A DNA stretch of 64,000 nucleotides from assembly GCA_963840855.1 (NCBI GenBank), contig CAWJBB010000081.1, positions 11,367-75,366 on the forward strand. Reading direction: 5' to 3'. The DNA is from an uncultured delta proteobacterium. Its GTDB lineage: Bacteria > Desulfobacterota > Binatia > UBA9968. This document shows positions 5,841-59,622 of this stretch, in pieces. The notes under the pieces were generated by a model. That model did not search any database and was not told the DNA's origin. It worked only from the letters and a program-made list of their open reading frames with translations. Position 1 is the first letter of the stretch; each line of letters starts with the position of its first letter. Position numbers and translations under genes: made by a program.

Positions 5841-5888
5841 GCGACTTTAGTTAGGGTGAAAGGTCAGGAGTATCGGGCCTCAATACCA

Positions 5889-6719: not shown

Positions 6720-6728
6720 GGATCGCCC

Positions 6729-7406
6729 ATGGGCATCTCGGTTGTTGTTCCCATCCTTAACGAAGAAAGAACCATCGCGGCGCTGCTGCGGGCGCTCATG
6801 CAACTCAAGCCCGACGAGTTGATACTTGTCGATGGTGGCAGCAGCGACGGCACGCAGGCGATCTGCCGGCAATTCGGTGTCGAAGTATTAACGTCGCCGC
6901 GCGGGCGGGCGGCGCAGATGAATTACGGCGCGCGGCGGGCAACCGGCGATGTGTTACTGTTTTTGCACGCCGACACGCGGCTGCCACCGACCGCTTTTAG
7001 CGACATAAGAGACGCGCTTGGCGATCCGCGCTTCGTGGGCGGACGCTTCGATATTCAACTGGACGGCGATCATTGGATGCTGCGAGTGATCGGTGCGATG
7101 ATCAGCCTGCGCTCGCGGTTGAGCAAGGTCGGCACCGGTGATCAGGGGATTTTCGTCCGGCGCGAAGTGTTCCAAAGGATGGGCGGCTTCCCGGAGATTC
7201 CGCTCATGGAAGACATCGCCTTCTGCCGCGCGCTCAAGCGCCTCGGCGAGGTGGCCTGTTTGAGAAGCAAAGTTATTACCTCCGCGCGGCGCTGGGAATC
7301 GGGTGGTGTCTGGCGCACGATCTTTAGAATGTGGATGCTCAAGTCGCTCTATCTGATGGGCGTCTCGCCGCAACGGCTGAAACGTTACTATAGCGACGGC
7401 CGGTAA
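6729..7406 (+). CDS. Family 2 glycosyltransferase (TIGR04283-type, rSAM/selenodomain-associated)
   Basis: ISVVVPILNEE, VDGGSSD, FLHADT, GDQGIF, PLMED and TSARRW motifs; cluster context. Confidence 0.88.
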   Translation: MGISVVVPILNEERTIAALLRALMQLKPDELILVDGGSSDGTQAICRQFGVEVLTSPRGRAAQMNYGARRATGDVLLFLHADTRLPPTAFSDIRDALGDPRFVGGRFDIQLDGDHWMLRVIGAMISLRSRLSKVGTGDQGIFVRREVFQRMGGFPEIPLMEDIAFCRALKRLGEVACLRSKVITSARRWESGGVWRTIFRMWMLKSLYLMGVSPQRLKRYYSDGR

Positions 7407-7469
7407 CGCGGACATCGATGCTCACGCCTTGGAATTTACTACGTAACATTTTTTTCCCATCCGTGAATA

Positions 7470-8150
7470 ATGCAGAAGAACGCACTGATCATAATGACGA
7501 AGGCTCCCGAGCCGGGCGAGGTGAAAACCAGGCTGGTCCCGCCCTTGACGTTTTTAGAAGCGGCTGATCTGGCGCGGGCGTTGTTAGCGGATCAGCTGAA
7601 GAGCGTCGCGCAATTTGGCAGAGCGGAATTGTTTATTGCGTTTACGCCGGATGAAGCGCGGGGCTACTTTGAAAACTTCGCCACGCTGGGGTTTTCCTGT
7701 TTCGCTCAGAAGGGCGGTGATCTTGGCGCGCGAATGAGCAACGCGTTTAAGCAGGTCTTCGAATTTGGATTCGGTAATGTCGTATTGATCGGAAGCGATC
7801 TGCCGGCGCTCCCATTGACTACGTTTGAGCGGGCTTATGCTTCTTTGCAGAAATCCGACTGCGATCTTGTCTTTGGGCCGAGCGAGGATGGGGGTTATTA
7901 TCTCGTGGGCATGGGCCGACCGATTTTTGACATTTTCCAAGACATCGTCTGGAGCCGCAACGATGTGCTGGCGCGCAGCGTCGAAAAGTTGGCCGAGCTG
8001 GGCGTTAATTACGAGCTTCTGAATTATAGTTATGATATTGATACGTTAGACGATTTAAAACGCCTACTATCAGACTGTGAACACCATCATCTTGGGATGC
8101 ATAGTACCTTGACTCTTTTGCGTCAGCTGAAGCAGAGAGGCATAGTATAA
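7470..8150 (+). CDS. TIGR04282/DUF2064-type transferase (rSAM/selenodomain-associated)
   Basis: KAPEPGEVKTRL, QKGGDLGARM, LIGSDLP, GPSEDGGYYLVG and DIDT motifs. Confidence 0.85.
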   Translation: MQKNALIIMTKAPEPGEVKTRLVPPLTFLEAADLARALLADQLKSVAQFGRAELFIAFTPDEARGYFENFATLGFSCFAQKGGDLGARMSNAFKQVFEFGFGNVVLIGSDLPALPLTTFERAYASLQKSDCDLVFGPSEDGGYYLVGMGRPIFDIFQDIVWSRNDVLARSVEKLAELGVNYELLNYSYDIDTLDDLKRLLSDCEHHHLGMHSTLTLLRQLKQRGIV

Positions 8151-8252: not shown

Positions 8253-10308
8253 ATGGCGAGTCAAAGTATTGACGCGTTGTGTATCGACACGATCCGCACC
8301 TTATCGATGGATGCGGTGCAAAAGGCAAACTCCGGCCATCCGGGGGCGCCCATGGGGCTTGCGCCGGCGGCTTATGTTTTATGGACGCGCTTTCTAAGCC
8401 ATAACCCGCGCAATCCCTCATGGCCCGACCGCGACCGCTTCGTCCTCTCCGCCGGGCATGCCTCGATGCTGCTTTACAGCATGCTTCATCTTACCGGGTA
8501 CGATCTTCCGCTCGAACAGATCAAACAATTCCGCCAGTGGGGGAGCCGCACGCCCGGCCATCCTGAGCGCAAGCTGACGCCAGGAGTAGAAACAACCACG
8601 GGACCGCTCGGTCAAGGTTTCGGCAACGGCGTCGGCTTGGCCATGGCGGAAGCGTACCTGGCGGCGCGCTACAACCGCCCGGGATTCGAGGTCGTCAATC
8701 ACTTTACCTACGGCATCGTCAGCGACGGCGACTTGATGGAAGGCGTGGCAGCGGAAGCCGCCAGCCTCGCCGGCCATCTGAAATTGGCCAAATTGATTTA
8801 CCTCTACGACAACAACCACATTTCGCTCGCTGCCTCCACTGACTTGACGTTCACGGAAAACTGCGCGATGCGGTTCGAGGCCTATGGCTGGCACACGCAA
8901 ACGGTGGACGACGGGAATGATATCGAGGCCATCGACCAGGCGCTCGGCGCCGCGCGCGGCGAGACGACCCGGCCATCGTTGATAATTTTACGCACGCATA
9001 TCGGATACGGATCGCCGGGGAAGCAGGACACCTTCGAGGCGCATGGGTCGCCTTTGGGGGAAGAAGAAGTCAAGCTGACAAAAAAGAACCTGGGCTGGCC
9101 GGCGGAGCAACCGTTTTTCATTCCGGATCCGGCGCTGGCGCATTTTCGCGAGGCAATCGGCAAGGGAGAACGGGCTGAGGCGGAATGGAATGAGCGGTTC
9201 TCCTCCTATGCGAGGGAATTTTCCGACATGGCGAGAGAGCTGGAAGACGCGCTCCGCGGCGTTTTGCCGATGGGTTGGGAAGCGGCGATTCCCGAATTTC
9301 CCCCGGACGCGAAGGGGCTGGCGACCCGGGCGGCATCGGGGAAAGTTTTAAACGCGATAGCGCCCAAGCTTCCGACATTGATCGGCGGCTCGGCGGATTT
9401 GAATCCATCAACGTTCACGGTGCTGCAGAAGCTGGGTGATTTTCAAAGCCCAGCAGAGAGAGTGCACCGATAGCCAGGGGTCGGCGGGGGGCGGTTGGGG
9501 CTACGGCGGACGCAACTTGCACTTCGGGGTGCGCGAGCACGGCATGGGCGCGGCGCTGAACGGCATGGCGGCCCATGGCGGAATCATTCCCTTCGGCTCG
9601 ACCTTCCTCATATTTTCCGATTACCTGCGCCCGTCGATCCGGCTCGCGGCAATAATGGAGCTGGGCGTGATCTATGTCTTTACGCATGACAGCATCGGTG
9701 TCGGCGAGGACGGCCCGACGCACCAACCGGTCGAGCAGTTGGCCGCGCTGCGCGCCATACCGCGCCTGGTCGTAATTCGTCCTTGCGACGCCAATGAGAC
9801 CGCCGTGGCATGGAGGTTTGCCATCGAGAGTCGCGATGGTCCGGTGGCGCTGGCGTTGACCCGTCAAAATCTGCCGACCCTCGATCGCACACAGTTCGCC
9901 GCAGCCGGCGGACTGCGACAAGGAGCTTACGTCCTGGCTGACGCACCGGATGGCAGGCCCGATATAATTTTGATCGGCACCGGATCAGAAGTGGCCTTGG
10001 TCATCGCGGCGCGGGAAAAGCTCGCGCAGCTAAATATTCAGGCGCGCGTTGTTTCCATGCCCAGTTGGGAACTCTTCGATGCGCAGTCTCAGAAATATCG
10101 CGACTCAGTCTTGCCCCGGCCTGTGCGGTCGCGACTTGCTGTGGAAGCGGCTCTGCCGCAAGGGTGGCATCGCTACGTCGGCGACGGCGGCGACGTCATC
10201 GGGGTAGAGCGTTTCGGCGCCTCGGCCCCCGGAAATGTGGTGATTGAAAGATTGGGCTTTACCGTGGAACATGTTGTCGAGCGCGCTCTCGCGCTGGTGG
10301 AAAAATAA
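8253..10308 (+). CDS. tkt: Transketolase, split by one frameshift at ~9450
   Basis: SGHPG and the ThDP-binding SDGDLMEG in the first ORF; [24 protein letters not shown] and FGASAP in the second. The junction lies next to an AG repeat. Confidence 0.93.
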
Positions 10309-10311
10309 AAA

Positions 10312-10770
10312 ATGCGCGTCGCCATCGGCGCCGATCACGCGGGGTTCGAGCTGAAACAAATTCTCCTCGACTATTTGCGTCACCGCGGCCACGAGGTGAT
10401 CGACCTAGGGACAACCAGCGAAGATCCCGTGGACTATCCGGACTTCGCCGAAGCCGTGAGCAAGGTGCTGTTGGACGGCGCCGCGGAGCGCGGCGTGCTC
10501 GTCTGTGGCAGCGGCGTGGGCGCTTCGGTTTCAGCCAATAAAATACCCGGCATTCGGGCCGGGCTTTGTCACGATACCTACTCGGCGCGCCAGGGCGTCG
10601 AGCATGACGACATGAATATTCTTGTGTTGGGGGCTCGGGTGATCGGCGTAGAGCTTGCGCGCGAGCTGGTGAACAACTTCTTGGCTGCGAACTTCAACGG
10701 TGAAGAGCGTCACCGCCGCCGCATCGAGAAGATCAAAGCCCTCGAAAAACGCTACGGCAAAGCGAAGTAA
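10312..10770 (+). CDS. rpiB: Ribose-5-phosphate isomerase B
   Basis: GADHAG, DYPD and [13 protein letters not shown] motifs. Confidence 0.95.
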
Positions 10771-10782
10771 GGGAGAGACATC

Positions 10783-13545
10783 ATGAACCCTCTGAATGAA
10801 TTGCTCGGACAAGGACAGTCCGTCTGGCTCGACTATATTCGGCGCAATTTGATCCGCAGCGGCGAGCTGAAGCGGATGGTGCAAGAGGATGGCGTCCGCG
10901 GCGTCACCAGTAATCCCACGATCTTTGAGAAGGCCATCGCAGGGAGCACGGACTACGATGAGGCGCTAGCCGTCGCGCTCGCGGGCGATCCCAGCGCCGC
11001 CGTGGAAAAACTCTACGAGCAGTTGGCCATCGAAGATATTCAAATGACCGCCGACGTCCTGCGCCCGGTGTTCGACGAGACGCAAGGGGGAGACGGATAC
11101 GTGAGCCTGGAGGTGTCGCCCCATCTCGCCCACGATACTCAAAGCACGATCAGCGCAGCAAAGCGCTTGAAAGCGGCCGTAAACCGGCCAAATCTGATGA
11201 TCAAGGTGCCGGCGACGCCCGAGGGGATTCCCGCCATCGAAGCGCTCATCGCCGACGGCGTGAGCGTCAACGTGACCTTGATGTTCTCCATAAGCCATTA
11301 CGAGGCCGTGGCGCGCGCCTACATCAAAGGCTTGGAACGCTGCGCCGAGCCGTCCAAGATCGCGTCTGTGGCATCGTTCTTCGTTAGCCGTGTGGATACG
11401 ATGGTGGATCGGGCCCTGGCGAGTTTAGGTACGCCGCAGGCGCAGAGCCTGCTGGGCAAAATCGCCGTCGCCAATTCCAAGCTGGTTTACAACCGGTTCC
11501 GCGAGATCTTTCATGGCGAGGGATTCGCCGCACTGCGCCAGCGCGGTGCCAGAGTGCAAAGACCGCTGTGGGCCAGCACCGGCACAAAAAACCCCGCTTA
11601 CTCCGACGTTCTCTACGTGGAAAATCTGATCGGCCCGGAAACAGTCAACACTATGCCGCCCGAAACGCTCAATGCTTTTAAAAATCATGGCAAAGTGATC
11701 GATAGCTCGGTGCGAGAAAATCTCGATCAGGCGGCGGCGGCGTTAGGACGGCTGAAAGCGCTGGGAATCGATCTCAATATTATCGCCGAAAAGCTACAGC
11801 AAGATGGTGTGGCTGCCTTCGCCGCGTCCTTCGACGCGCTACTTTCAGCGCTGGAGAAAAAGCGACAATCGATGGTTGGCGGAGAGCTAAATCGCCAGGA
11901 GCTGGAGCTAGGAAAGTATCAGGCTCGGGTCCAGCGGCGCCTGAAAAGTTGGCAGGCGGCGGGGTTCGCCGGCCGGATATGGAAAAAAGACTGGACGATC
12001 TGGTCGTCCACGCCGCAACCCGAACTGGCGGACCGCCTTGGCTGGTTGGATTTGCCGCAGAAGATGGCGCAAGACGTCGCTAATCTGGCTGCCTTCGCCG
12101 GCAAGGCAAAGGCCGACGGTATCCGCTATGTCGTGCTTCTCGGTATGGGGGGATCGAGCCTCGCGCCCGAGGTCTTTCAGAAGACTTTCGGCAATGCTCC
12201 GGGTCATCCCGAGCTAGTCATGCTCGACAGCACCCATCCCGGCGCAGTGAAAAGCGTGGAAACGAAAATTGATTTGGCGCAGAGCCTATTTCTAGTTTCG
12301 AGCAAGTCGGGCACGACCACGGAGACCAACTCATTCTTCTTCTACTTCTGGGATAAATTAAAACGGATCAAGGATGATCCCGGCCAGCATTTCGTTGCCA
12401 TCACCGATCCGGGTACCCCGCTGGAGAAGCTCGCCGCGGAAAGAAAATTCCGCGCGACTTTCAATGCGCCGGAAGACATCGGCGGCCGCTATTCCGCCCT
12501 TACGGTATTTGGTTTGGTTCCGGCTGCGCTTATCGGCGTTGATATTGGCGCTCTGCTGGCGCGCGCCCGTCGAATGAGCGAAAGCTGCGGCGCTCTAGTG
12601 GAGGAGAGTCAAAATCCCGCGCTGGCGCTGGGCGCGGCGCTGGGGGAACTGGCGCTGGCAAAGCGCGACAAAGTAACGTTCTTGTGCTCGCCGTCGCTGG
12701 GCGCTTTTCCCGATTGGGTCGAGCAACTGATCGCCGAAAGCACGGGCAAAGAGAAAAAGGGCATCGTGCCGGTGGCCAATGAAGGCGACGGAGCGCCCGA
12801 GAAATATGGCGACGATCGGTTCTTCGTTTACTTGCGCCTGAAGGGTGACGAGAATCACCGCCTTGACCGCCAGGTGGCGGCGCTGCAAGAGAACAGCCAC
12901 CCGGTGGCGCGCATTGATTTGAACGACAAGCTCGATCTCGGCCAGGAGTTTTTCCGGTGGGAATTCGCCGTGGCGGCCGCAGGGGCGGCCATCGGTATCC
13001 ATCCTTTCAATCAGCCCGATGTTCAACTCGCCAAGGATTTGGCCAAGAAAGCGATGAGCGAGAGCGCCGGCGGCAAGAAAGCGGGCGCGATACTGAGAGA
13101 TGAAGTCGCCGTTAGCGATGACGGCCAATTGCGCCAAGCGGTTGCGTCATGGCTGGGCAAGAAAAAGACGCGCGATTATGTCGTTGTCCAGGCATACCTG
13201 ACGCCGTCGCCCGAACACGCCGCAAGATTGCGGGAGGTCTCAAGGATCATCCGCGACCGGCTAGGGGTGGCCACCACGCTCGGTTTTGGCCCGCGCTTTC
13301 TCCATTCCACCGGACAGCTCCACAAAGGAGGGCCGAATTCGGCATTGGTATTACAAATCGTCGATCAGCCTGCCGATAATTTAGCCGTGCCGGAGACGAA
13401 CTATACCTTCGACGCGTTAATTCAAGCTCAAGCGCTAGGCGATTTAACGGCGCTTAAGCAACGGCGGCGGCGCGTGCTCAGAATCAATCTTGGCGGCGAA
13501 ACCTTGAGCGGACTGGATCGGTTAGTGCAGGCAGTCCGGTCTTAA
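10783..13545 (+). CDS. Bifunctional transaldolase / phosphoglucose isomerase
   Basis: N-half: GVTSNPTIF, MIKVPAT, NVTLMFS, RPLWASTG. C-half: GMGGSSL, SSKSGTT, GGRYSAL, EQLIAESTGK, FNQPDV. Confidence 0.93.
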   Translation: MNPLNELLGQGQSVWLDYIRRNLIRSGELKRMVQEDGVRGVTSNPTIFEKAIAGSTDYDEALAVALAGDPSAAVEKLYEQLAIEDIQMTADVLRPVFDETQGGDGYVSLEVSPHLAHDTQSTISAAKRLKAAVNRPNLMIKVPATPEGIPAIEALIADGVSVNVTLMFSISHYEAVARAYIKGLERCAEPSKIASVASFFVSRVDTMVDRALASLGTPQAQSLLGKIAVANSKLVYNRFREIFHGEGFAALRQRGARVQRPLWASTGTKNPAYSDVLYVENLIGPETVNTMPPETLNAFKNHGKVIDSSVRENLDQAAAALGRLKALGIDLNIIAEKLQQDGVAAFAASFDALLSALEKKRQSMVGGELNRQELELGKYQARVQRRLKSWQAAGFAGRIWKKDWTIWSSTPQPELADRLGWLDLPQKMAQDVANLAAFAGKAKADGIRYVVLLGMGGSSLAPEVFQKTFGNAPGHPELVMLDSTHPGAVKSVETKIDLAQSLFLVSSKSGTTTETNSFFFYFWDKLKRIKDDPGQHFVAITDPGTPLEKLAAERKFRATFNAPEDIGGRYSALTVFGLVPAALIGVDIGALLARARRMSESCGALVEESQNPALALGAALGELALAKRDKVTFLCSPSLGAFPDWVEQLIAESTGKEKKGIVPVANEGDGAPEKYGDDRFFVYLRLKGDENHRLDRQVAALQENSHPVARIDLNDKLDLGQEFFRWEFAVAAAGAAIGIHPFNQPDVQLAKDLAKKAMSESAGGKKAGAILRDEVAVSDDGQLRQAVASWLGKKKTRDYVVVQAYLTPSPEHAARLREVSRIIRDRLGVATTLGFGPRFLHSTGQLHKGGPNSALVLQIVDQPADNLAVPETNYTFDALIQAQALGDLTALKQRRRRVLRINLGGETLSGLDRLVQAVRS

Positions 13546-51969: not shown

Positions 51970-52121
51970 GCTCTTACCATAGGATAACTTTCCACATTCT
52001 CGCAAGTGCGCGTAATTGAACCAGCGGATAATTCCGGGAACCTTTCACTGGGAAAATCAGTTGGTCAACTGAAAGCCCGGAATTGGACACCACATTCAGC
52101 CTTCGATACAATCGCCGGGTC

Positions 52122-52694
52122 ATGAAAGGGATCAAGGCTGGCGATCTTGACCGCGAGCGCTTCGCGTCAGAGATCATGACCTATCTCGATCATCTCTACC
52201 GGGTGGCTTACTATCTCGTCAAAAACGCCGACGAGGCGCAAGATTGCGTTCAAGAGACCTGCGTGCGAGCGCTGGGCTCGCGCAGCCAATTTACTCCGGG
52301 CACCAATATGAAGGCCTGGTTGACGCGAATTCTTTATAACTTTTCTTATGATGTCTACGCGCGCAATCGACGAATGGTTTCCGCCGAGGTTCTGATCGAA
52401 GCTGGAGAGCAGACTAAAGATTTTTGGGAGACGCTGCCGACGGCGAACCCCGGCCCCGAAACGATCGCGCTGGAGCGAGAACTGGGAGCGAAAATCGGCG
52501 ACGCGCTAAGGCGTATTCCCGAGGAGTTTCGCGCGCCGATCGTTTTGGTGGATATGGGTGATTTATCTTACGCGCAGGCCGCGCAGATTCTTTCCTGTCC
52601 TGTCGGCACGATCAGGTCGCGCTTGTCGCGCGGTCGCAAACTGCTGGAGAAGCAGTTGTGCGGCTACGTGGGCATCACCGGAACGGATCGATAA
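52122..52694 (+). CDS. ECF sigma-70 factor
   Basis: AQDCVQET, KAWLTRI and LSYAQAAQILSCPVGTIRSRLSRGR motifs. Confidence 0.92.
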   Translation: MKGIKAGDLDRERFASEIMTYLDHLYRVAYYLVKNADEAQDCVQETCVRALGSRSQFTPGTNMKAWLTRILYNFSYDVYARNRRMVSAEVLIEAGEQTKDFWETLPTANPGPETIALERELGAKIGDALRRIPEEFRAPIVLVDMGDLSYAQAAQILSCPVGTIRSRLSRGRKLLEKQLCGYVGITGTDR

Positions 52695-52697
52695 ACC

Positions 52698-53508
52698 ATG
52701 CGCTGCGACGAAGCCCAAGAACTGATTACCGCTCGAGTGGATGGCGAGCTGAGCGCCGACGAGCAGCTCGCCATCGAGGCTCACTTGAAAATCTGCGGTC
52801 CGTGTCGCGAGGCCTTCACCGCGGAAAGTTACCTGAAGCAGCAAACCAAATTGGCTGGCCGCGGTATCACAGCGCCGGCTTCATTGCGCCAGGCGATCGA
52901 AGCGAGATTTGCCGGAGGGCGGCCAATTTTCATAGGGAGAAGCAGCGAATCCGTGCGGCGGTGGTTTGGTATCTCCGGCTGGCGGCCGGCGTTTGCGGCG
53001 GCGCTTCTTCTCCTTACAGTAGCTTCGGTCATTTATATGAGATGGCCTTCGCAAAACATCGGCCTTTCAGCACTGGAGACGCACGCGAGTATCCTCAATG
53101 GCAACACTGTTCTCGTCCGGTCTGGCGATCCTGCGGCAATGAGAGACGAGCTGGCCCGGGCAGTGGGTGAGCGTTTTAGGCCGGTAGCTTTCGATCTCTC
53201 TATAATGAAGCTTTACCCGGTTTCCGGCTTCGTTCAGAAAGTCGGTCACCGTGAAGTGCTCGTCACGGTTTATCAAGGCGACGGTCCCACGATTACCTGT
53301 TTCACTTTTCTCGGCAGCGAAGCCGACGCGCCCGACGGCGCGGAGCGGTTCTACGATGCCGACATGCGGCTCGACTTTTATTCGTTCTCGCGCGGCGGGT
53401 GTGAACGGACTCCTGCATCGAGAAGGGGAGGTAATCTGCCTGCTGGTGTCAAAAATGCCGGCCGCCGACCTGCTCGCAATGATTCGTGGAAAATCAGCCC
53501 ACGCGTAA
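52698..53508 (+). CDS. Zinc-binding (HxxxCxxC) transmembrane anti-sigma factor, frameshifted at ~53400
   Basis: AHLKICGPC and one TM helix. After one base is removed the C-terminus continues GVNGLLHREGEVICLLVSKM to a stop at 53508. Confidence 0.8.
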
Positions 53509-53619
53509 ACCGGCAGGCGGTCGGAGTGTTGGAGTACTGGAGCGATGGTTCTAATTAACAGGTTGCTGAAAAACTCTCTCGGAGTCCTTCGACTAGGCTC
53601 AGAGCCTTATATTAGGTCT

Positions 53620-53858: not shown

Positions 53859-55084
53859 GTGAAACGATACTATGTGGGAGTGGATTGGGCTGATGAATTT
53901 CACCAGGTATGGGTCAGCGATGCCGAGGGCAAGAAAGTAGCCGAGATGAAGGTTGAGCAGAGTCCCAAGGGCATGGGCGAGTTTGGCCGTTGGTTCCATG
54001 AACGTCAGGCAGAACAGATAGAGCTTTGGGCGGCCATCGAGAAGCCCCAGGGGCGGATTGTGGATTTTCTGTTGGACCACGGGGTAGTGGTCTATCCGGT
54101 TAATCCCAAGGCCCTGGACCGGGTCAGGGACCGGTTTCGCATGAGCCAATCCAAGAGCGACTCCTTTGATGCTCATGTGTTGGCGGACTTTGTCAGGACC
54201 GATCATGCTCATTTGCGAGCTCTTGAGCCTAACTCTGCTCCGGCCCAAGAGTTTAAGATGCTCACCCGGGATCACCACCGATTGGGGCGCCATAAGACTC
54301 GGCTCATCAATCAGATCGAGGCAACGCTCAAAGAGTATTACCCTCGCCCCCTGGAGGTTTTCTCTGATCTGGAATCGAAGATTGCGTTGGATTTTCTACC
54401 CAGTATCCGACTCCACGGGCACTGTCTGATCTTACCCGTAGAAAATGGAACCGCTTTGCCAAGCGCGAGCACCATCTCAGTGAGGCGCGCTGTAAAGAGC
54501 TGTGGGAGAAGCTGAACCAGCCGCAGTTGGGAATTCCAGAACACGTGATCAGAGCCAAGGCGCAATTGCTTTTGGTGCTCGTCGCTCAGCTTAAGGCCTT
54601 GGCTCAGGCGGTGGAGAGCTACAGCGAGGAGATCCAACGTTTTTTCGCCTCTATGCCGGCGGCTAAGCTTGCGCAGACACTGCCGGGAGGAAAAAGTGGG
54701 ACCATCGTACCGATGCTTTGGGCCGAGCTGGGCGATGTCAAGAGCCGATGGCAATCCTTTCGTCACCTTCAAGCCGAAGCGGGAGGGGTCCCGGTAACCC
54801 AATCCAGCGGCAAGAGCCATGTCGTACTGTTTCGTTTTGCCTGTAACAAGCTGATGCGATACGCCTCGTACTGGTTGTCGTTTAACTCGCTCAATCGCTG
54901 TGAGTGGGCGAACAAGTACTATCGCGACCAACGGGCGAAAGGACATCATCATCCCCAAGCGCTTAGGGCTTTGGCAGCGAAGTGGTTGAAAATTATTTTC
55001 ATCATGTGGAGAGACGATAAGCCGTACGATGAGAACTATCACTTGGCGAACATCGCCCGTCAGACGATGCGCCAGGCGGCATGA
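53859..55084 (+). CDS. IS110 recombinase (DEDD RuvC-like plus Tnp domain), frameshifted at ~54397
   Basis: YVGVDWA, AIE and KSDSFDA catalytic motifs; C-terminal AGGVPVTQSSGK (catalytic Ser) and ALRALAAKW. Adding one base joins the halves (LDFLTQYPTP). AGGAGG RBS. Confidence 0.92.
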
Positions 55085-55126: not shown

Positions 55127-55262
55127 GCCCTGTTTATCGAAGGGACGAACGGAGGGGAATTGATACCGTTGATGAATTTCCGTTCATGCTGAGACCTCGA
55201 AGCATTCCGAACCGTTTTTCAGCGACCTGCTAACTCACAACACTCCGTATTTTCCGCTCTGA

Positions 55263-55317: not shown

Positions 55318-55392
<75 letters not shown>

Positions 55393-55857
55393 AACCTCTC
55401 TAAAGTCAATCTCATATCGTTCTACGCGATCAATATATTGGCCCAGTCTTGTCCCATTCAGCGTGACAAAGACCACGAACACCGATTATGACTCGCGCAA
55501 AGTCGCAAAGGGCGCCAAGTTAAGCGGATTGCACCTGGACTAATACCGCAAAAATATTCTCCTCTTTTGGCTGATTCGAGATCTCGAGACGCCGACATAC
55601 CAAACGCGCGGATCATTGTTGACTTGCTTGAGGTACGCCGACGTGACGCAGTCGGGGAGGTGTCTCGATGAATCAGCCGATCACTTCGAAACCATCTTCA
55701 AATCCGCCGCAGGGTTTGCATTCGGACTCTGGCGGAAAGCAAAGCATGCAGAGCTCGGCGCCTTCCATTTCTCTTCCTGAGGTCGGCGCAGTAGAAGCGG
55801 ACAAGTAAGTATGAACACATTCGATTCGTATTAACCGGCGCGCAACGGTCTACGCAA

Positions 55858-55884
55858 TTTTGGATACACCTACTGTATCCAAAA
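55858..55884. promoter_or_regulatory. Perfect dyad, candidate enhancer-binding-protein site
   Basis: TTTTGGATACA-cctac-TGTATCCAAAA (11-bp arms), ~100 bp upstream of the -24/-12 motif. Confidence 0.6.
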
Positions 55885-55986
55885 GTTGCCTATATGTTCA
55901 CTTATCAACGTAAGCTCATGCAGTTCGCACAAGTATTTTTGCAGTCATGCGGAGAACTTCATCATTTCAAGCGAGGAACGGTGACA

Positions 55987-56002
55987 TGGCATTGTTATTG
56001 CT
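55987..56002 (+). promoter_or_regulatory. Sigma54 (-24/-12) promoter
   Basis: TGGCATTGTTATTGCT fits TGGC-N(8)-TGC with exact GG-N10-GC spacing. Confidence 0.65.
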
Positions 56003-56274
56003 TTGTTAAAAAAAAACAAAAAGAAGCTAACGCGAATCGCATGCATTGCCGCAGATGGCATCCGCGATTTTCAAAGAGTCGACGGGGCAACGATTTGGGA
56101 ACATTTAGAATGCCGGAAAATGAGGGAGGAATTCAATATTATCTGCAGCATTTGGATACTGCGAAATCCGTTCGGGATGTAGTTGTAGTTAAGGACGGCG
56201 GAAATCTGGGCAAAGTTAAAAACCTCATCAACCTCGCGTTAAGGAAAACGCGTTAATGGAAAGGAGTTAGAATC

Positions 56275-57852
56275 ATGGCACTAGTGGAACCGAGCGTAAT
56301 GGTCAACTCGATCATGGGCAAGCTCTACAACATCCTTACTAACGGTGATGACACGGTACCTAAGTCCGAGGACAATTTTTTTAGCTGGGCGACGCCTGGC
56401 ATACCCATCGAGCCCGGCGACTTTGAGTTTCTGTCACAAGGACTAACCGGCGTCGTCAAGAAAGCCAAGCTAGACGAGATACGCGGGCAGGGAGCTGAGA
56501 ACGGAAACAATCCGGTGGAGGTGACCCCGCAGATGCTCGAGTCGTTGCGTGCCCAGGACACCGCCGGGCTGTACATGCAGGCGGAGAACTTCTCACGGCT
56601 CGTCGATTTCGTACCCGATCTGGCGAGCACCACGAACAATCAGTTCGCGCAGTTGAGCATCATGAACAACGAGGGAACGTTATCAGAGCGTTACGAGTAT
56701 ATCTTGCGCATGAGCCAGATCATGCAAACAGAGTTGCCCGAGGAAACAAAAAAGAAAATCGAAAAATTTCGCGGCTTGTTAAGTGTCACGAAGACGAAGA
56801 AGAACCTGATCGATGATACCGAAACCCAAGTAACTGAACCCAGCCCTCTGGTAGTCGTTTACAACCAGAAGATGGGCGAATACGAAAATGCGGCTCTGGA
56901 ATACAACTCCCATCGTATCGATGCGCTGACAGCCGATAATGTAAAGGCCGTTCATTACTGGGCCATCAATGCAAACATCCTGCGAAACAAGGTGAAGGCC
57001 GCGATGGCCGATTGGGTGAGTAGTGGCTACAAGAATGAGTATGACCAGATGGCCGCGTTCATTGATCAGGTTATGCAGCGCGATATGGCGTTGCTCAAGC
57101 AGCAATACCGGGACGATTTGGAAAAGGCCAGACTGACCGGTATGGCTTCGGGCAGCGATTTTTACTATACCTCGCTGGTGCCAGGCAATTTCATGAAGGC
57201 GTCCGGTTGGACCGAGTTTGGCTTCAGTTCGTCCGATTTCAACACTTCTTCGAATTCAAGCTACAGTTTTAGCAGGTCTTCTACGAGCGCCGCGGGTGGA
57301 TGGCTGGGTATTTTCGGCGGCGGAGGAACAGCGAGCAGCGCCGGCGGCGAATCACAATCCCATGTTCAGTTCGACAGCGATCATTTCGGTATGAACTTCA
57401 AGATCACGCAAGTGCCGATCGTACGTCCGTGGTACAAGACCGCTTTTTTGGTCAGCAAGCTGTGGCGGTTCGACCAGAACAATCCGGAAGCCAAGGGCGA
57501 TATGGTGAGCGATGGCGGCAAGCCACCGAAAGGTCTAATCCCGGCCTATCCCACTTCGCTGATTTGCATCAAGGATCTCTCGCTGTGCTTCGCCAAGAGC
57601 AGCGGCTTTGAAGATGCTCAATCGAGCTGGAAGCGTTCATCGGCGAGCGGTGGCGGGGCTATCCATTTCGGTCCATTCCATCTCGGTGGCTCGCATAGCC
57701 GCAGTTCAGCTAGCGGACAGCGCTCGTCCCAGTATCACTACGACTCCGAGACGCAGACCATGACCGTGCCCGGTGCGCAAGTGATCGGGTTCAAATGCCA
57801 CATCATGCCGAAGTCTCCCGAGCCGAACAGCAGCATCACTCAGTGGATATAA
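56275..57852 (+). CDS. Uncharacterised protein A (525 aa) with two Ser/Gly-rich segments
   Basis: AAGGAG RBS and a long ORF; collinear similarity to the downstream gene. No family recognised. Confidence 0.85.
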   Translation: MALVEPSVMVNSIMGKLYNILTNGDDTVPKSEDNFFSWATPGIPIEPGDFEFLSQGLTGVVKKAKLDEIRGQGAENGNNPVEVTPQMLESLRAQDTAGLYMQAENFSRLVDFVPDLASTTNNQFAQLSIMNNEGTLSERYEYILRMSQIMQTELPEETKKKIEKFRGLLSVTKTKKNLIDDTETQVTEPSPLVVVYNQKMGEYENAALEYNSHRIDALTADNVKAVHYWAINANILRNKVKAAMADWVSSGYKNEYDQMAAFIDQVMQRDMALLKQQYRDDLEKARLTGMASGSDFYYTSLVPGNFMKASGWTEFGFSSSDFNTSSNSSYSFSRSSTSAAGGWLGIFGGGGTASSAGGESQSHVQFDSDHFGMNFKITQVPIVRPWYKTAFLVSKLWRFDQNNPEAKGDMVSDGGKPPKGLIPAYPTSLICIKDLSLCFAKSSGFEDAQSSWKRSSASGGGAIHFGPFHLGGSHSRSSASGQRSSQYHYDSETQTMTVPGAQVIGFKCHIMPKSPEPNSSITQWI

Positions 57853-57859
57853 ACCGCCT

Positions 57860-57888
57860 GGCGGTCCCGCTTCATGTGCGGGGCCGCC
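57860..57888 (+). terminator. GC-rich intergenic hairpin without a U-tract
   Basis: GGCGGTCCCGC-ttcatgt-GCGGGGCCGCC, 7 bp after the stop of gene A. Confidence 0.55.
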
Positions 57889-57927
57889 TTCGCGACACGA
57901 CGGCAATTCGATAGTTGAGGAGTAGAC

Positions 57928-59433
57928 ATGGATTCCGCAGTGCAATTGGCTTTAATGACCAAAGCAAAAAAGGTATTCGGCGCCGATGATACCTTCCTGA
58001 GTTTCCCGGTGTCGCCGCTACCTCACACGAAGCGGCAACTGGATTTTTTCGCGCAACAGGATGCAACTGCTCTCCGCCAGAGCCTGCAAAACCTGCAGGC
58101 GTTTTCGACGCTGGTGAATCTGATCCCTAGCGATGAGGCGTGGCTACCGACGGAGACGCGCTTCCTTTGGGACGTTTACGAACAGATGCTCAAAGAAGCG
58201 CAGTTTGCATCTTCGACTCGCACACCCGAGGAGGAAGCGGAGTACCAGCAGGCGCTGGCCTACCTCCGCGTAGCCGGCGATGGCGGCGCGTGGGAGGAGA
58301 GCGCGCCGGTCAAGGCCTATAGACAGCATAAGGATGCCTATGTGTTGGCTCAACAGAATTATCTAGCCGCTAAGAGTACGGCTGAATGCGGGACCGACGC
58401 CGAGAGACAGCGATGGCGGGATGTCGATGAGCCTGCGCGGCGTAAGGAGCTCGATGCGCTGCAAGCGCAGTGGATCATCGCGGGAAAGAATGAGGTGGAG
58501 GCTGCGCAGAATAAGGTTATAAGTCTCGGAGCGAAATCGCCGATTCAAACATGGGGTGAATGGAACAGCCGGTTCAATCGCGATATCGACACTTTGACCG
58601 GCGCATCTGACAGTTTTACGGTTTTCCCTAGCCTTTTTTCACCTTCCAACGCGCTCGAAGAGGGCGCGTGGAAGCCATTTAAGCTCAGCGAGCAGGAAGT
58701 CAAAGTCTTGCTCAATGAAGCGCCTGCGGAGCTGCGCACCCGGTTCGCGGCGGATAGCGCGGCGTCGTCGGTGGCGTCGCTGACCTTCGAGTTCAGTTCC
58801 GCGGTCATCCTGCGACCCTGGTTTGTGTCTGAGGCTTTCCGGGTGCGGTTCTGGCGGTTTGCGGATGCGAGCAGGATCCTCTCGGATGGCGGTACGCCAC
58901 CGAAGGGGACGTGTCCTGCTTACGTGACGGCTATCGTCTTTGCGCGCAGGGTGGCTGTGGAAGAAAAGCGGGCCGAGCCGGCACCGGGCGCCAAGCCGTT
59001 CGACGGGTTCCGCTTTACGGTCGCAGTCAAAGATCAAGAGAGGCTTACGCGGATACCGCCCGAAGTTTTAATCGCAACGCAACCTCGCACCGTTAATGCG
59101 ACTTCACCGACGATGAATGTAAGGGTGGCGGAAGCCGTGTCGCCGAGGACAGCCAATATTCGTGTGGCGAACCCCCAACTAATGCGAGCGGCTGACATGA
59201 ACGTTGCGGTGGCGAGGCCGGTTACAGCTCAGGAAGTTTCCGCACGTCCCTTACGCAATCTGAGCACCGTGGCTGTCACTCGGTTGCCGCAGCAGCCTGT
59301 TGCCGGCACCGGAACCACCGCTCCTTCCCCCTCACCGCAGGCGACAACTCCGGATGATGAGATTTATATCCTCGCGTTCATATGCAAAACCCTGCCGAAA
59401 AGTCCCGATCCCGATCTTACTTTACAGTGGTAG
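57928..59433 (+). CDS. Uncharacterised protein B (501 aa), paralogue of A
   Basis: GAGGAG RBS; shares RPW, WRF, SDGGxPPKG, PAY and FxCxxxPKSPxP...QW with A. Confidence 0.85.
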   Translation: MDSAVQLALMTKAKKVFGADDTFLSFPVSPLPHTKRQLDFFAQQDATALRQSLQNLQAFSTLVNLIPSDEAWLPTETRFLWDVYEQMLKEAQFASSTRTPEEEAEYQQALAYLRVAGDGGAWEESAPVKAYRQHKDAYVLAQQNYLAAKSTAECGTDAERQRWRDVDEPARRKELDALQAQWIIAGKNEVEAAQNKVISLGAKSPIQTWGEWNSRFNRDIDTLTGASDSFTVFPSLFSPSNALEEGAWKPFKLSEQEVKVLLNEAPAELRTRFAADSAASSVASLTFEFSSAVILRPWFVSEAFRVRFWRFADASRILSDGGTPPKGTCPAYVTAIVFARRVAVEEKRAEPAPGAKPFDGFRFTVAVKDQERLTRIPPEVLIATQPRTVNATSPTMNVRVAEAVSPRTANIRVANPQLMRAADMNVAVARPVTAQEVSARPLRNLSTVAVTRLPQQPVAGTGTTAPSPSPQATTPDDEIYILAFICKTLPKSPDPDLTLQW

Positions 59434-59622
59434 TCGGGGCGACCCGATACACGACAGACAAATGCTCTTTATTTCGAATCCCCCCTAGAGAAAAGGAAAA
59501 GTTACTGGGTGGCGGGGTCCTTGAATAGAAATCCGTATGCGCAAATATGCGAAGCTAGTCAGCGTGCTGAAAATCTCTGATTGCAGGCTGCTAGTTTTTT
59601 GCTCAGGCTTTAGTCATGTGCG

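Follow-up and report, generated by a model that had tools for sequence, protein, structure and literature searches.

The A-B Gene Pair and Its Surroundings

The window, a 64,000-nucleotide stretch of DNA, carries on its forward strand two adjacent open reading frames, designated A and B, next to an insertion element and a tRNA gene:

53859..55084, + strand, IS110-family transposase in two open reading frames beside the A-B cassette (Pfam DEDD_Tnp_IS110, E = 2e-32; Transposase_20, E = 1.7e-5)
55318..55392, + strand, tRNA-Gly(CCC), between the IS110-type element and the cassette
56275..57852, + strand, gene A, open reading frame of 525 residues, putative hairpin-bearing pore-forming subunit
57853..57927, + strand, A-B spacer of 75 nt
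57928..59433, + strand, gene B, open reading frame of 501 residues, paralogue of A without the two hairpins, putative non-inserting partner

The IS110 element is flanked by a 20-nt inverted repeat (53555-53574 and 55214-55233). No terminator-like site was found in the A-B spacer, and RNA contigs of run X17 overlie the spacer region (57677-57999). Metatranscriptome contigs from four runs in three studies span positions 56074-57861, which indicates from RNA libraries that gene A is real and expressed somewhere.

An initial annotation made from the sequence alone had described A and B as collinear paralogues. In agreement with this, BLASTP aligned A 79-437 with B 29-344 (E = 7e-11, 20% identity over 369 columns) and detected a second collinear segment at the C-termini (A 503-524 and B 481-501, E = 5e-4), and each motif pair quoted in the annotation was present in both translations. 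By sequence comparison, the resemblance is far above chance expectation; at the DNA level, a trace of it persists as a 23-nt repeat (57511-57533 and 58885-58907, 87% identity). As the annotation also held, no named family fits either protein: A and B matched nothing in Pfam (0 families in hmmscan of Pfam-A at E<=1), NCBIfam, PADLOC or PHROG, and a 65-sequence profile of A searched against all PDB sequences returned just two chance rows (E>=1). The N-termini of both proteins were unlike signal peptides in a crude hydropathy scan (highest 19-residue Kyte-Doolittle means of 1.27 for A and 1.28 for B), which agrees with the earlier view that neither carries one.

Two Conserved Ser/Gly-rich Segments in Protein A

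Protein A was divided into the following segments:

56275..57129, + strand, A residues 1-285, helical for the most part, including a long helical hairpin (191-250), and with a strand at 34-45 (full-length model)
57211..57423, + strand, HP1, first predicted long beta-hairpin, A 313-383 (domain-model strands 28-51 and 68-98)
57250..57363, + strand, Ser/Gly-rich tip of HP1, A 326-363, turn GGWLGIFGGGG
57424..57543, + strand, conserved inter-hairpin linker, A 384-423 (RPW[YF]...WRF...SDGG.PP.G..PAY)
57544..57804, + strand, HP2, second predicted long beta-hairpin, A 424-510 (domain-model strands 139-172 and 192-225)
57610..57729, + strand, Ser/Gly-rich tip of HP2, A 446-485, turn HFGPFHLGG

The Ser/Gly-rich segments that had been noted near nt 57295 (residue 341) and nt 57655 (residue 461) fall inside residues 326-363 (32% Ser, 24% Gly) and 446-485 (30% Ser, 18% Gly, containing GAIHFGPFHLGG). 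In HP1 the alternation runs W335/A337/A339/L341/F343, turn, F347/I349/A351/A353, and in HP2 it runs I457/A459/G461/V463/F465, G466-P467, F468/L470/G472/Y474. Conservation in homologues, against which the annotation had proposed to check these segments, was evident: across 65 members of the family (25-79% identity), both are conserved in place, in length and in character. Column hydropathy of the family alignment revealed hydrophobic and small residues alternating on either side of a Gly or Gly-Pro turn; in the A protein of the window itself, the tip-proximal strands are mainly Ser, Gly and Ala, with few strongly hydrophobic side chains. The linker between the hairpins, in which R384 and W397 are invariant, is the best-conserved block common to A, B and the short lipoprotein partners described below (the latter by hhalign), and its counterpart in B retains R296, W298, W309, G321 and G327. 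Candidate roles for residues 1-285 are regulation, autoinhibition or targeting.

Loss of Both Hairpins from Protein B

An alignment of 53 B orthologues and BLASTP defined three segments of B:

58672..58812, + strand, B 249-295, short fixed-length helix-like segment (E..L..EAPAELR) in the place of HP1 (53-orthologue alignment)
58948..59361, + strand, B 341-478, variable low-complexity insert in the place of HP2 (53-orthologue alignment)
59362..59430, + strand, B 479-501, conserved last strand and tail (IYILAFICK.LPK.PDP..LQW), matching A 503-525 (BLASTP)

Both hairpins are missing from all 53 orthologues. The short helix-like stretch and the long insert by which B had been said to differ from A were located at residues 249-295 and 341-478, respectively. 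The first is 47 residues long, opens with EQEVKVLLNEAPAELR... and is 24 residues shorter than its counterpart in A. The second comprises 138 residues in the window and is rich in Ala, Val, Pro, Thr and Arg; across the orthologues its length varies from 106 to 277 residues, and it is Pro/Ala-rich in most. Whole domains lie inside the insert or downstream of it at three loci (L014, L029 and L032), and 1 of the 53 orthologues carries a PG_binding_1 domain. In the tail, C486 and P493 are invariant.

Predicted Structure of Protein A

The full-length model of A reached a pLDDT of 77.2, with the HP1 and HP2 segments at low confidence and mostly disordered. When residues 286-525 were folded alone, the best model (pLDDT 76.5; the other four, 62-70) contained strands of 24-34 residues (28-51/68-98 and 139-172/192-225) forming two long hairpins, of which the confident strand parts (pLDDT 85-97) are 13-24 residues long and the tips have a pLDDT of 35-52. 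These extended hairpins were seen only with the N-terminal 285 residues omitted and are absent from the full-length model; residues 443-459, for instance, are modelled as helix for the full-length protein and as strand for the domain alone.

Foldseek searches of the domain model against the PDB gave 13 matches at E<=1e-3, and among those listed were perforin, poly-C9, pleurotolysin, membrane attack complex and perforin-2 pores (best values: 7pag, 3.3e-5; 5fmw, 6.1e-5; 4v2t, 2.4e-4), followed by the bacterial gasdermin and GSDMD pores at E values of 5e-3 to 7e-3. Among 48,161 chains compared by VIA-align, 11 had Z>=5, and all 11 were pore-state MACPF or gasdermin protomers or an entry titled "Aegerolysin-L pore" (Z 5.2-6.6, 135-195 residues aligned; lower rows, about 50 residues). 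MACPF pores scored Z 6.4-6.6, bacterial and animal gasdermin pores 5.2-6.3, the pneumolysin pore 5.9 and small beta-toxins about 2. The structure prediction and Foldseek comparison that the annotation had suggested, applied to A, led to pore-state protomers of MACPF, gasdermin, CDC and CDCL proteins only, and the predicted four-long-strand architecture matched pore-state structures exclusively. Pore-state MACPF, CDC and CDCL structures matched with Foldseek E values of 3e-5 to 0.2 and Z 5.6-6.6, and gasdermin pores fit equally well; at the level of the model, the fold match does not separate MACPF/CDC from gasdermin. The matches are modest (Z 5.2-6.6, TM 0.2-0.4, rmsd 8-13 A), a Z below 8 may reflect merely a common arrangement, and any model with four long antiparallel strands would be expected to match these pore entries. 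The full-length model gave no significant match in the fold searches, the top Foldseek row being the inactive bacterial gasdermin 7n51 (E = 0.18, probability 0.35), and residues 1-285 matched generic helical hairpins only (Z<=8.4, under the noise level quoted for helical models).

We consider it rather probable from these models that A is a giant-pore-type pore-former of a new family and B its non-inserting paralogous partner. The annotation had arrived at a beta-pore former with a non-inserting partner, and the conserved hairpin segments, the domain model, the loss of the hairpins from B and the co-inheritance of B with A (see below) lend this reading computational support.

A possible but distinctly less probable reading is that A and B form no pores and are a soluble or envelope-associated beta-sheet pair, such as an oligomeric scaffold or an adhesin-like or cell-wall-associated assembly. 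The Ser/Gly and Pro/Ala segments would then be flexible linkers, and the long hairpins would have arisen as a modelling artefact from the truncated, low-complexity input; the poorly defined tips, the single model out of five that reached 76.5 and the full-length model without the extended form are consistent with this. Linkers, however, would not be expected to stay constant in length and to preserve an invariant frame of Trp and Gly together with alternating hydrophobic residues across 25-79% identity, and the confident strand parts already measure 13-24 residues. The matches do not exceed Z 6.6 or TM 0.40, and no sequence link to any pore-former was seen, but only pore-state protomers among the 48,161 chains aligned beyond about 110 residues. 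The peptidoglycan-related neighbours that recur near the pair (see below) are equally compatible with a cell-wall role, whereas the loss of exactly HP1 and HP2 in two independent kinds of paralogous partner would be expected if a pore-former were paired with a protein that does not insert.

Distribution of the Pair and a Sister Subfamily

Searches at E<=1e-3 returned 661 homologues of A (1,093 cluster representatives at the same threshold) and 154 of B. Within the window's subfamily, the gene immediately downstream of A is B in all 31 loci with room for it, and the gap measured by tblastn is 12-405 nt in 30 of the 31 related loci; the A-B pairing is one of co-inheritance. At each of the 31 loci, conservation is higher for A than for B (mean identity, 65.6% versus 42.2%), and the two identities are correlated (r = 0.79). 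The subfamily with both genes extends over at least 8 phyla. None of 60 relatives of the host genome was found to carry the cassette, phyla are intermixed on the tree (13 label changes versus a minimum of 7), and no homologues were found in 50,697 phage records or IMG/VR. We read A and B as a two-gene cassette, self-contained and horizontally mobile, of an unnamed protein family.

In a sister subfamily, the A-like gene adjoins a gene for a 244-298-residue protein with a lipobox or signal peptide in 9 of 9 loci with enough flank. By hhalign, this short protein shares homology with the core of A and B (probability 88-89%, E about 3e-6); it is a truncated, lipoprotein-type paralogue without the hairpins; its A-like neighbour has no signal peptide either. 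A hairpin-less partner, whether B or the short lipoprotein-type paralogue, is therefore the rule in this family.

Proposed Mechanism

In the mechanism that we propose, the conserved twisted beta-core of A would bear HP1 (313-383) and HP2 (424-510), which may be disordered or partly helical in the soluble protein. Upon oligomerization, both segments would extend as amphipathic beta-hairpins, each protomer thereby contributing four strands to a large membrane barrel, with the Gly-rich aromatic hairpin tips leading insertion. A would in this way function after the manner of perforin/C9, the cholesterol-dependent cytolysins and the gasdermins. B appears to retain the N-terminal helical region, the beta-core and the inter-hairpin block, the likely protomer-protomer surface. 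Because B lost both hairpins and kept the shared core, it would dock on A through that core without inserting. B might cap A or hold it inactive, as a decoy protomer or an immunity-like inhibitor, or it might seed assembly and aim it through the variable insert; we regard the two roles as roughly equal in likelihood. Oligomerization, membrane insertion, A-B binding and the biological role are inferred. As to that role, we lean slightly toward antagonism against other cells after release over killing of the producer from inside.

Genomic Neighborhood and a Possible Action Inside the Cell

A total of 87 neighbour proteins were scanned, and these included one Mrr (restriction-type), one integrase and one transposase domain, the others being housekeeping or unknown; the neighbours of the pair do not look like a defence island. 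A, B and the upstream open reading frame matched 0 families of PADLOC-DB 2.0 at E<=1. A neighbour of about 310 residues with an invariant Q..NLCGP/FPNH motif (Cys/His), possibly a protease, occurs in 4 of 33 loci, and a cluster of eight hemopexin-repeat proteins, two of them with HExxH, is distributed over 7 of 33 loci. In a Nitrospira locus, an AAA ATPase and an NlpC/P60-like protein lie near the pair. Peptidoglycan-binding, cell-wall hydrolase, LRR and hemopexin domains occur in neighbours and B variants, some of which have signal peptides.

The same molecules might act inside the cell, with A as a gasdermin-like executioner on its own membrane, in abortive infection or programmed death, and B as a cytosolic inhibitor or sensor whose fast-evolving disordered insert would be the part on which an invader or protease acts. 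We hold this to be somewhat unlikely and give it a minority share of the likelihood assigned to pore formation, contained within that likelihood and not added to it. The absence of a signal peptide from A in both subfamilies and from B in the window's subfamily is consistent with such a role, as are the accessory and patchy occurrence of the cassette, the adjoining insertion element and tRNA, and the faster evolution of B with its hypervariable insert. The possible proteases that recur nearby (the Q..NLCGP/FPNH protein, the metallopeptidase-hemopexin proteins and the NlpC/P60-like protein) and the bacterial gasdermin at the top of the full-length search, albeit at E 0.18, point in the same direction. 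However, neither PADLOC nor the neighbours give a defence picture, and the lack of phage or IMG/VR homologues, although neutral for defence, leaves no trace of counter-defence. That the sister subfamily has an exported, lipoprotein-type partner would suit a site of action on the outer face of a membrane, and the wall-related domains of neighbours and B variants, in part with signal peptides, also argue against an inside-acting pair.

Comparison with Known Pore-forming Proteins

In the two-component CDCL toxins of Bacteroidota, which consist of a long and a short component, a 30.4-kDa lipoprotein immunity protein, BcdI, blocks the pores, as described in PMC11169675. One component polymerizes to a giant beta-barrel, whose assembly is started or steered by the other (as set out in PMC11169675 and PMC11952106), and the expressed forms of the CDCLs studied in the former began after the cysteine of an SpII (lipoprotein) signal peptide (PMC11169675). 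By these accounts, A and B resemble CDCLs as two adjacent paralogous genes on mobile DNA, and the lipoprotein blocker of about 30 kDa recalls the 244-298-residue lipobox protein that accompanies the A-like protein in the sister subfamily. Alignment of the EaCDCL pore with the domain model of A covered 142 residues (Z 5.6, rmsd 4.8 A). In contrast to the CDCLs as described there, A and B have no signal peptide; they also share no sequence similarity with CDCLs, and the Pfam profile Thiol_cytolysin (PF01289) did not match either protein at E<=1. In the present family, by contrast, the partner lacks the hairpins, and where it is of the lipoprotein type it is a shortened paralogue of the putative pore-former. 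A begins with a helical region of 285 residues, and a CDC-type domain 4 is absent; the chain ends 15 residues past the last core strand and therefore has no room for a C-terminal Ig-like domain 4.

The MACPF proteins (perforin, C6-C9, pleurotolysin B and perforin-2) provide the best fold matches of the A domain model and, like that model, have two hairpin-forming segments on one sheet. In the membrane attack complex, paralogues form hetero-oligomers and CD59 is a lipid-anchored inhibitor. The MACPF signature is [YW]-G-[TS]-H-[FY]-x6-G-G, and a regular-expression search for this form had no hits among 65 A and 53 B sequences; the MACPF profile (PF01823) likewise matched neither protein in hmmscan at E<=1. 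The hairpin segments are mostly disordered in the full-length model of A, whereas those of MACPF proteins are two helical bundles, and A and B are leaderless and cytosolic.

A shares with gasdermins the character of a leaderless cytosolic protein and, by prediction, four strands per protomer in a giant barrel, but it has double the size of bacterial gasdermins, and its extra region is N-terminal and not a C-terminal inhibitory tail. The gasdermin profile (PF04598) did not match A or B at E<=1. The constant neighbour of A is a paralogue and not a protease, protease-like neighbours being facultative (the Cys/His-motif protein in 4 of 33 loci; HExxH in two of the eight hemopexin-repeat proteins). 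Pyroptolysins are described as gasdermin-CDC chimeras, with a fold convertible from suicide to attack, in a sequence set restricted to 325-400 residues whose proteins carry a CDC-like Ig domain (bioRxiv 10.64898/2026.10.05.756811). A differs from the pyroptolysins of that set in having no CDC-like Ig domain.

The XaxAB/YaxAB toxins and the tripartite AhlABC are encoded by adjacent paralogous genes without signal peptides, are active only together and insert helical hairpins. A and B share the gene arrangement and the lack of signal peptides, and AhlC and XaxA are weak matches to the helical hairpin of A, although the conserved insertable-looking elements of A are beta and these matches are no better than those of unrelated coiled coils. 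It is very unlikely that the pair is a binary alpha-helical pore-forming toxin resembling XaxAB/YaxAB or AhlBC, with a membrane-active N-terminal helical region: AhlC (Z 7.9 over 92 residues; Foldseek E 0.45-0.75) and XaxAB (E 1.1) cover only the generic helical hairpin 154-270, AhlC ties with F-BAR, colicin, efflux-adaptor and designed coiled coils (Z 7.2-8.4, below the quoted helical noise), the crude scan found no hydrophobic helical stretch, its 1.27 maximum lying in a beta-strand, and the conserved hairpin segments and their loss in B would be left unexplained.

A more far-reaching reading, which we regard as improbable, is that the family is a fourth giant-pore lineage in addition to MACPF, CDC/CDCL and gasdermin, carried by gene transfer into bacteria of at least seven phyla and perhaps into an archaeon and controlled by decoy protomers, with death-switch and immunity roles. 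If this were true, a hairpin-less paralogue on the pore-former's assembly surface would constitute a principle not described for MACPF, CDC/CDCL or gasdermin. The cytosolic pair of the window would be a prokaryotic perforin-like death switch, with the fast-evolving disordered insert of B as its sensor or bait, and the sister-subfamily decoy, now an exported lipoprotein, would be an immunity factor. As leads only, a language-model look-up placed Thiol_cytolysin and MACPF as the nearest named clusters for both proteins (0.85 and 0.84 for A; 0.83 and 0.82 for B).

RESULTS

A and B Are Collinear Paralogues outside the Named Families

The cassette consists of two genes on the same strand, separated by 75 nt.

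56275-57852, + strand, ORF of 525 aa (A)
57928-59433, + strand, ORF of 501 aa (B)

BLASTP aligned A with B over 369 columns at 20% identity (E = 7e-11) and detected an additional collinear segment at the C termini (E = 5e-4), confirming the collinear paralogy proposed in the initial annotation; the motif pairs listed there were all found in A and B (6/6). At the DNA level, a trace of the SDGG.PPKG block of the two genes is seen as a 23-nt repeat (87% identity). The Ser/Gly-rich segments of A lie at residues 326-363 (32% Ser, 24% Gly) and 446-485 (30% Ser, 18% Gly). At the corresponding positions, B carries a 47-residue helix-like stretch and a 138-residue insert rich in Ala, Val, Pro, Thr, and Arg, and both composition and position agree with the replacement described from the sequence. 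As also described, no signal peptide was apparent at either N terminus in a crude hydropathy scan, and in A and B hydropathy was at most 1.28 in every 19-residue window.

The failure to recognise a named family was likewise upheld, as A and B had no match in Pfam, NCBIfam, PADLOC, or PHROGs, nor did the small ORF upstream of A; the A-family profile gave only chance rows against PDB sequences. Among the candidates scored in a 90%-clustered collection, 661 homologues of A were found at E ≤ 1e-3; the 120 of these that were listed are 62-100% identical, and where a listed homologue has a source name, that name is "hypothetical" in every case but one. The corresponding number for B was 154 (E ≤ 1e-3). 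Among 1.84 billion 50%-cluster representatives, 1,093 belonged to the A family at E ≤ 1e-3 and 540 at 1e-10. The family occurs in soil, sediment, and gut organisms and ranges from Actinomycetota to Cyanobacteriota. A search for A-family fusions of 920-2,625 aa, in itself weak evidence, found none, and in 17 N-terminally extended relatives (443-727 aa) no Pfam domain scored above its family's curated cut-off, with sub-threshold matches to DUF3496 (protein P0128) and VWA_2 (protein P0231). A keyword search found no literature on the family, and differently worded papers or supplementary data could exist.

The Ser/Gly Segments of A Are Conserved and Alternate in Hydropathy

The initial annotation had made its pore-forming reading depend on conservation of the Ser/Gly segments in homologues. 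In an alignment of 65 A-family members (identity 25-79%), both segments are kept, holding their position and nearly their length, and column-wise hydropathy alternates on either side of the turn in each. In the first predicted hairpin (HP1, residues 313-383), the alternating positions are W335, A337, A339, L341, and F343, followed by an L-G-[LI]-F turn and F347, I349, A/G351, and A353; in the second (HP2, residues 424-510), they are I457, A459, G461, V463, and F465, followed by a G466-P467 turn and F468, L470, G472, and Y474. Clean alternation continues in the core-proximal strands 371-383 and 496-510. Judged from the alignment, this is the pattern of amphipathic beta-hairpins, and the segments would be conserved features rather than linkers.

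A Model of the Isolated Beta-core of A Matches Pore-state Protomers with Modest Scores

The model of full-length A (65 sequences; pLDDT 77.2, pTM 0.68) has a strand at residues 34-45, a helical region to residue 285 that includes a long hairpin (191-250), and a beta-core (286-525) in which pLDDT falls below 50 at 326-363 and 454-485 and a helix occupies 443-459. Foldseek returned no match to this model at E ≤ 1e-3, the top row being bacterial gasdermin 7n51 (E = 0.18), and both VIA-align runs gave generic helical hairpins (Z ≤ 8.4), swamped by the hairpin at 154-270. These full-length searches were uninformative, and residues 286-525 were therefore folded alone.

The resulting model (77 aligned sequences; pLDDT 76.5, compared with 62-70 for the other four) contains four strands arranged as two long hairpins, 28-51/68-98 and 139-172/192-225 in domain numbering, with core-proximal pLDDT of 85-97 and tip pLDDT of 35-52. 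Foldseek gave 13 matches at E ≤ 1e-3, and those listed were all pore-state MACPF proteins: perforin (7pag, 3.3e-5), poly-C9, pleurotolysin, the membrane attack complex, as well as perforin-2. Lower rows held bacterial gasdermin and GSDMD pores (5e-3 to 7e-3) and EaCDCL and pneumolysin pores (0.1-0.2). When the list was re-examined, its best 25 rows were pore- or oligomer-state MACPF, gasdermin, CDC, and CDCL proteins or an entry named "Aegerolysin-L pore." Among 48,161 representative chains, VIA-align placed 11 at Z ≥ 5, each a pore-state MACPF or gasdermin protomer or the "Aegerolysin-L pore" entry, with Z of 5.2-6.6 over 135-195 residues, where by the tool's notes a Z below 8 can mean merely a common arrangement; the next rows aligned about 50 residues. 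Pneumolysin scored Z 5.9 (rmsd 6.6 Å, 168 aligned), EaCDCL Z 5.6 (rmsd 4.8 Å, 142 aligned), and lysenin and gamma-haemolysin Z ∼2. These fold scores do not tell MACPF, CDC, and gasdermin apart, and no sequence profile or signature placed A or B in any of the three. A protein-language look-up, which provides leads only, placed both proteins nearest, among named clusters, to those of Thiol_cytolysin and MACPF (0.82-0.85).

The extended hairpin form was seen only with the N-terminal region removed. Close to the tips, the A encoded in the window has mostly small residues at its lipid-facing positions, a weak point of the hairpin reading. In the main rival explanation, the long hairpins would be an artefact of modelling, and A and B would do something else at the envelope; set beside the alternation kept across the family, we regard this as less likely.

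An Apparently Mobile Two-gene Cassette Recurs across Phyla

A scan of one genome per species gave 33 related loci in Pseudomonadota, Nitrospirota, Cyanobacteriota, Bacteroidota, Actinomycetota, Acidobacteriota, and Thermodesulfobacteriota, plus one bin labelled Methanosarcina. Cultured carriers include Holophaga foetida DSM 6591, Xanthomonas bonasiae FX4, Phormidium tenue FACHB-1052, and Nodosilinea FACHB-131. A B homologue lies downstream of A in 31 of the 33 loci, and in the other 2 the contig ends. In 30 loci, 12-405 nt separate the genes; in one Fermentimonas bin (L033) the gap widens to 2,044 nt, and a 465-aa ORF (12132-13529) intervenes. A is more conserved than B in all 31 loci (mean identity to the window 65.6% versus 42.2%), and the two identities correlate (r = 0.79). 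No constant third gene was found across the related loci.

On a maximum-likelihood tree of 34 A proteins, phylum labels require 13 changes (minimum 7), some rows being metagenome bins for which single placements may reflect mis-binning; the Xanthomonas and Holophaga proteins are sisters (support 100/99). The window's own genome holds one copy, and at E ≤ 1e-10 the gene was not detected in 60 relatives (0/4 of the same genus, 0/32 further genomes of the family, and 0/24 of the order). Searches of 50,697 phage records and of IMG/VR did not recover the pair, and one distant relative was found among 72,556 plasmids. In the 4756-8025 region of Acuticoccus plasmid p3 (L037), this A-like protein (495 aa, 25% identity) has a signal-peptide protein of 260 aa on one side and an OmpA-family protein on the other. 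The plasmid is small and also encodes VapBC together with a restriction-modification system; no paralogue lacking the hairpins was detected there. L003 is the genomic relative closest to the window (92% identity); its A appears at 10001-11579 as two tblastn pieces (residues 1-417 and 419-525) with a longest ORF of 448 aa, which may reflect a frameshift or an error of sequencing close to residue 418.

Two Kinds of Hairpin-less Paralogue Accompany A

In 53 B orthologues, the HP1 position is taken by a segment of fixed length with a conserved E..L..EAPAELR motif and the HP2 position by an insert of 106-277 residues that is Pro/Ala-rich in most; one of the 53 has a peptidoglycan-binding domain there. 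In other B proteins, domains are duplicated or an LRR_5 region is joined by a C-terminal extension. In two Fermentimonas bins (L032, 11706-14402; L033, 13662-16358), B is 898 aa long and carries, beyond the conserved C-terminal motif, an LRR region of BspA type together with Cys-rich stretches resembling zinc ribbons and a hydrophobic segment at the C terminus.

A sister subfamily, found by scanning metagenome contigs with the single query protein P0137, comprises leaderless A-like proteins of ∼470 aa. No full-length B was found beside these genes; in 9 of 9 loci with enough flank (3 more were cut), the A-like gene adjoins one for a 244-298-aa lipobox/signal-peptide protein. Profile-profile comparison aligned this short protein with the cores of both B (probability 88%, E = 3.2e-6) and A (probability 88.9%, E = 2.4e-6), covering the W-strand, the RPWF block, and the next strand, with no hairpin. 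B and the homologous short protein both lack hairpins, and therefore two kinds of hairpin-less paralogue accompany the hairpin-bearing A. Hairpin loss in the partner is a rule of the family.

In four metagenome contigs, some labelled gut (L043-L045 and L047), the A-like gene is divided into two ORFs (241+222 or 187+274 aa), and near-identical versions in L042 and L046 are intact (469 aa); frameshifting, gene breakage, or misassembly could each account for the split.

A Is a Candidate Giant-pore Former

Perforin, complement, cytolysins, and gasdermins act through giant beta-barrel pores, which play a central part in the immunity of animals and in the virulence and warfare of bacteria, and the kinship among the three known lineages is an open question in the field. 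The reading of A as a pore former with B as its non-inserting partner, put forward in the initial annotation, holds as far as computation reaches, on the conservation of the hairpins, the pore-state fold matches, and the lack of hairpins in B, and we consider it moderately probable. A and B would then constitute a new family that has no sequence relation to the giant-pore formers and works as they do, a mechanism that we favor with some reserve. If pore-forming, the family would be a new branch with a different regulatory logic, the hairpin-less paralogue being the obligatory partner of A, and would provide small, easily expressed two-gene systems for dissecting pore assembly, capping, and targeting. 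From their co-inheritance, A and B may bind each other.

The two-component CDC-like toxins of Bacteroidota are the closest precedent. In these, a long paralogue is paired with a short one, and the two assemble in the manner of the complement membrane attack complex; the toxins need proteolytic activation and are borne on a mobile element (PMC11169675, PMC11952106), and an adjacent 30.4 kDa lipoprotein blocks pore formation (PMC11169675). The A/B family has the logic in common with them and not the sequence; unlike them, it is without signal peptides and without domain 4, and it has, as partner or immunity-like proteins, paralogues from which the hairpins were lost. Gasdermins resemble A and B in being leaderless and cytosolic. 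CDCL and pyroptolysin proteins are reported to "straddle" or chimerise the lineages (PMC11952106; bioRxiv 10.64898/2026.10.05.756811), and the pyroptolysin preprint describes these proteins as a gasdermin fold turned into an attacking toxin (bioRxiv 10.64898/2026.10.05.756811). Pepco and EACC1, protease-linked pore effectors, are small proteins and differ from A and B.

Neighbouring Genes Suggest a Possible Role at the Envelope or on Other Cells

Of 106 ORFs located no more than two genes away from the pair, we scanned 87, leaving out 19 that had already been scanned separately, were near-duplicates from sister loci, or were a B fragment or one long sensor kinase. At E ≤ 1e-5, 44 of the 87 had no Pfam match and most others were housekeeping proteins; the defence or mobility domains were one Mrr-type nuclease, one integrase, and one transposase. 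The A-B neighbourhood does not look like a defence island.

Proteins with hemopexin or DUF346 repeats (tectonin-like propellers) lie beside the pair at seven loci (L003, L004, L011, L016, L021, L022, and L024) from at least five lineages. Two of the hemopexin-type neighbours have an HExxH motif in a matrixin-like layout (L004 and L016), and two have a signal-peptide-like start (L021 and L022); at L029 the same place is held by an RCC1-repeat plus Lcl_C protein. Cell-wall hydrolase or peptidoglycan-binding neighbours occur at L008, L020, L030, and the Nitrospira loci. In each of the four Nitrospira loci (L011, L019, L021, and L022), B is followed on the same strand by genes for an AAA-family ATPase (519-521 aa) and for a CHAP/NlpC-P60-like protein; these may extend the cassette in this lineage or simply reflect conserved synteny.

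A further neighbour of ∼310 aa, directly adjacent and on the same strand, was found at four loci in three phyla, in a beta-proteobacterium, Xanthomonas, Nodosilinea, and Holophaga.

Positions of the ∼310-aa Cys/His-motif protein
L003, 13172-14122
L009, 13314-14225
L005, 9012-9950
L018, 8997-9947

It has an invariant Q-x3-N-L-C-G-P-A-A and a later F-P-N-H and belongs to no Pfam family, its best match being a weak one to the Legionella effector Ceg10 (E = 0.33); by this Cys/His motif, it may be a papain-like protease.

The neighbour associations, with the exported partner of the sister subfamily, lean toward action at the cell envelope or on other cells. The lack of a signal peptide on A, and on B in the window's subfamily, leans toward action from inside or release by lysis. 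Between the two, we incline very slightly to antagonism. A cytosolic death module would instead be a new kind of prokaryotic cell-suicide effector.

Genomic Setting and Occurrence in RNA Libraries

The pair adjoins a tRNA-Gly(CCC) and an IS110-type element, and the G+C content of the cassette stretch is slightly lower (0.52 versus 0.55-0.60).

53859-54515, IS110-family transposase, first ORF (DEDD_Tnp_IS110)
54527-55084, IS110-family transposase, second ORF (Transposase_20)
55894-56256, small ORF of 120 aa directly upstream of A

The transposase gene is probably frameshifted or broken. A 20-nt inverted repeat (53555-53574/55214-55233, 90% complementarity) flanks the element, and a further direct copy of this motif lies just 3' of B at 59560-59578 (19-nt pair 53559/59560, 84%); instead of an island border, this motif may represent a target sequence of REP-like type, and the 53559/59560 pair may alternatively be chance. 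A search for an att-like direct repeat of the tRNA end was negative, promoter-like and terminator-like sites did not exceed their frequency in shuffled sequence, and the tRNA was the sole match in an Rfam scan. Just upstream of the element (52083-53558) are genes for an ECF sigma factor (Sigma70_r2/r4) and a zf-HC2 anti-sigma factor, whose link with the cassette was not seen in other loci. The small ORF, with no family match and no tblastn counterpart in the 33 loci, is probably not a gene and was set aside.

Contigs from four metatranscriptome runs in three studies matched A (56074-57861) at 90-99% likeness. The non-coding stretch upstream of A had no contig cover in any of the four runs. Cover was missing over 55662-55969 and parts of B, which is uninformative because B is too divergent for reads of relatives to map. 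Strand and level are not readable from these contigs, RNA libraries can contain DNA, and many contigs come from relatives; the result is therefore only that A-family genes occur in soil and sediment RNA libraries. One such contig, 56074-56333, spans the small ORF into A and may mark a 5' leader.
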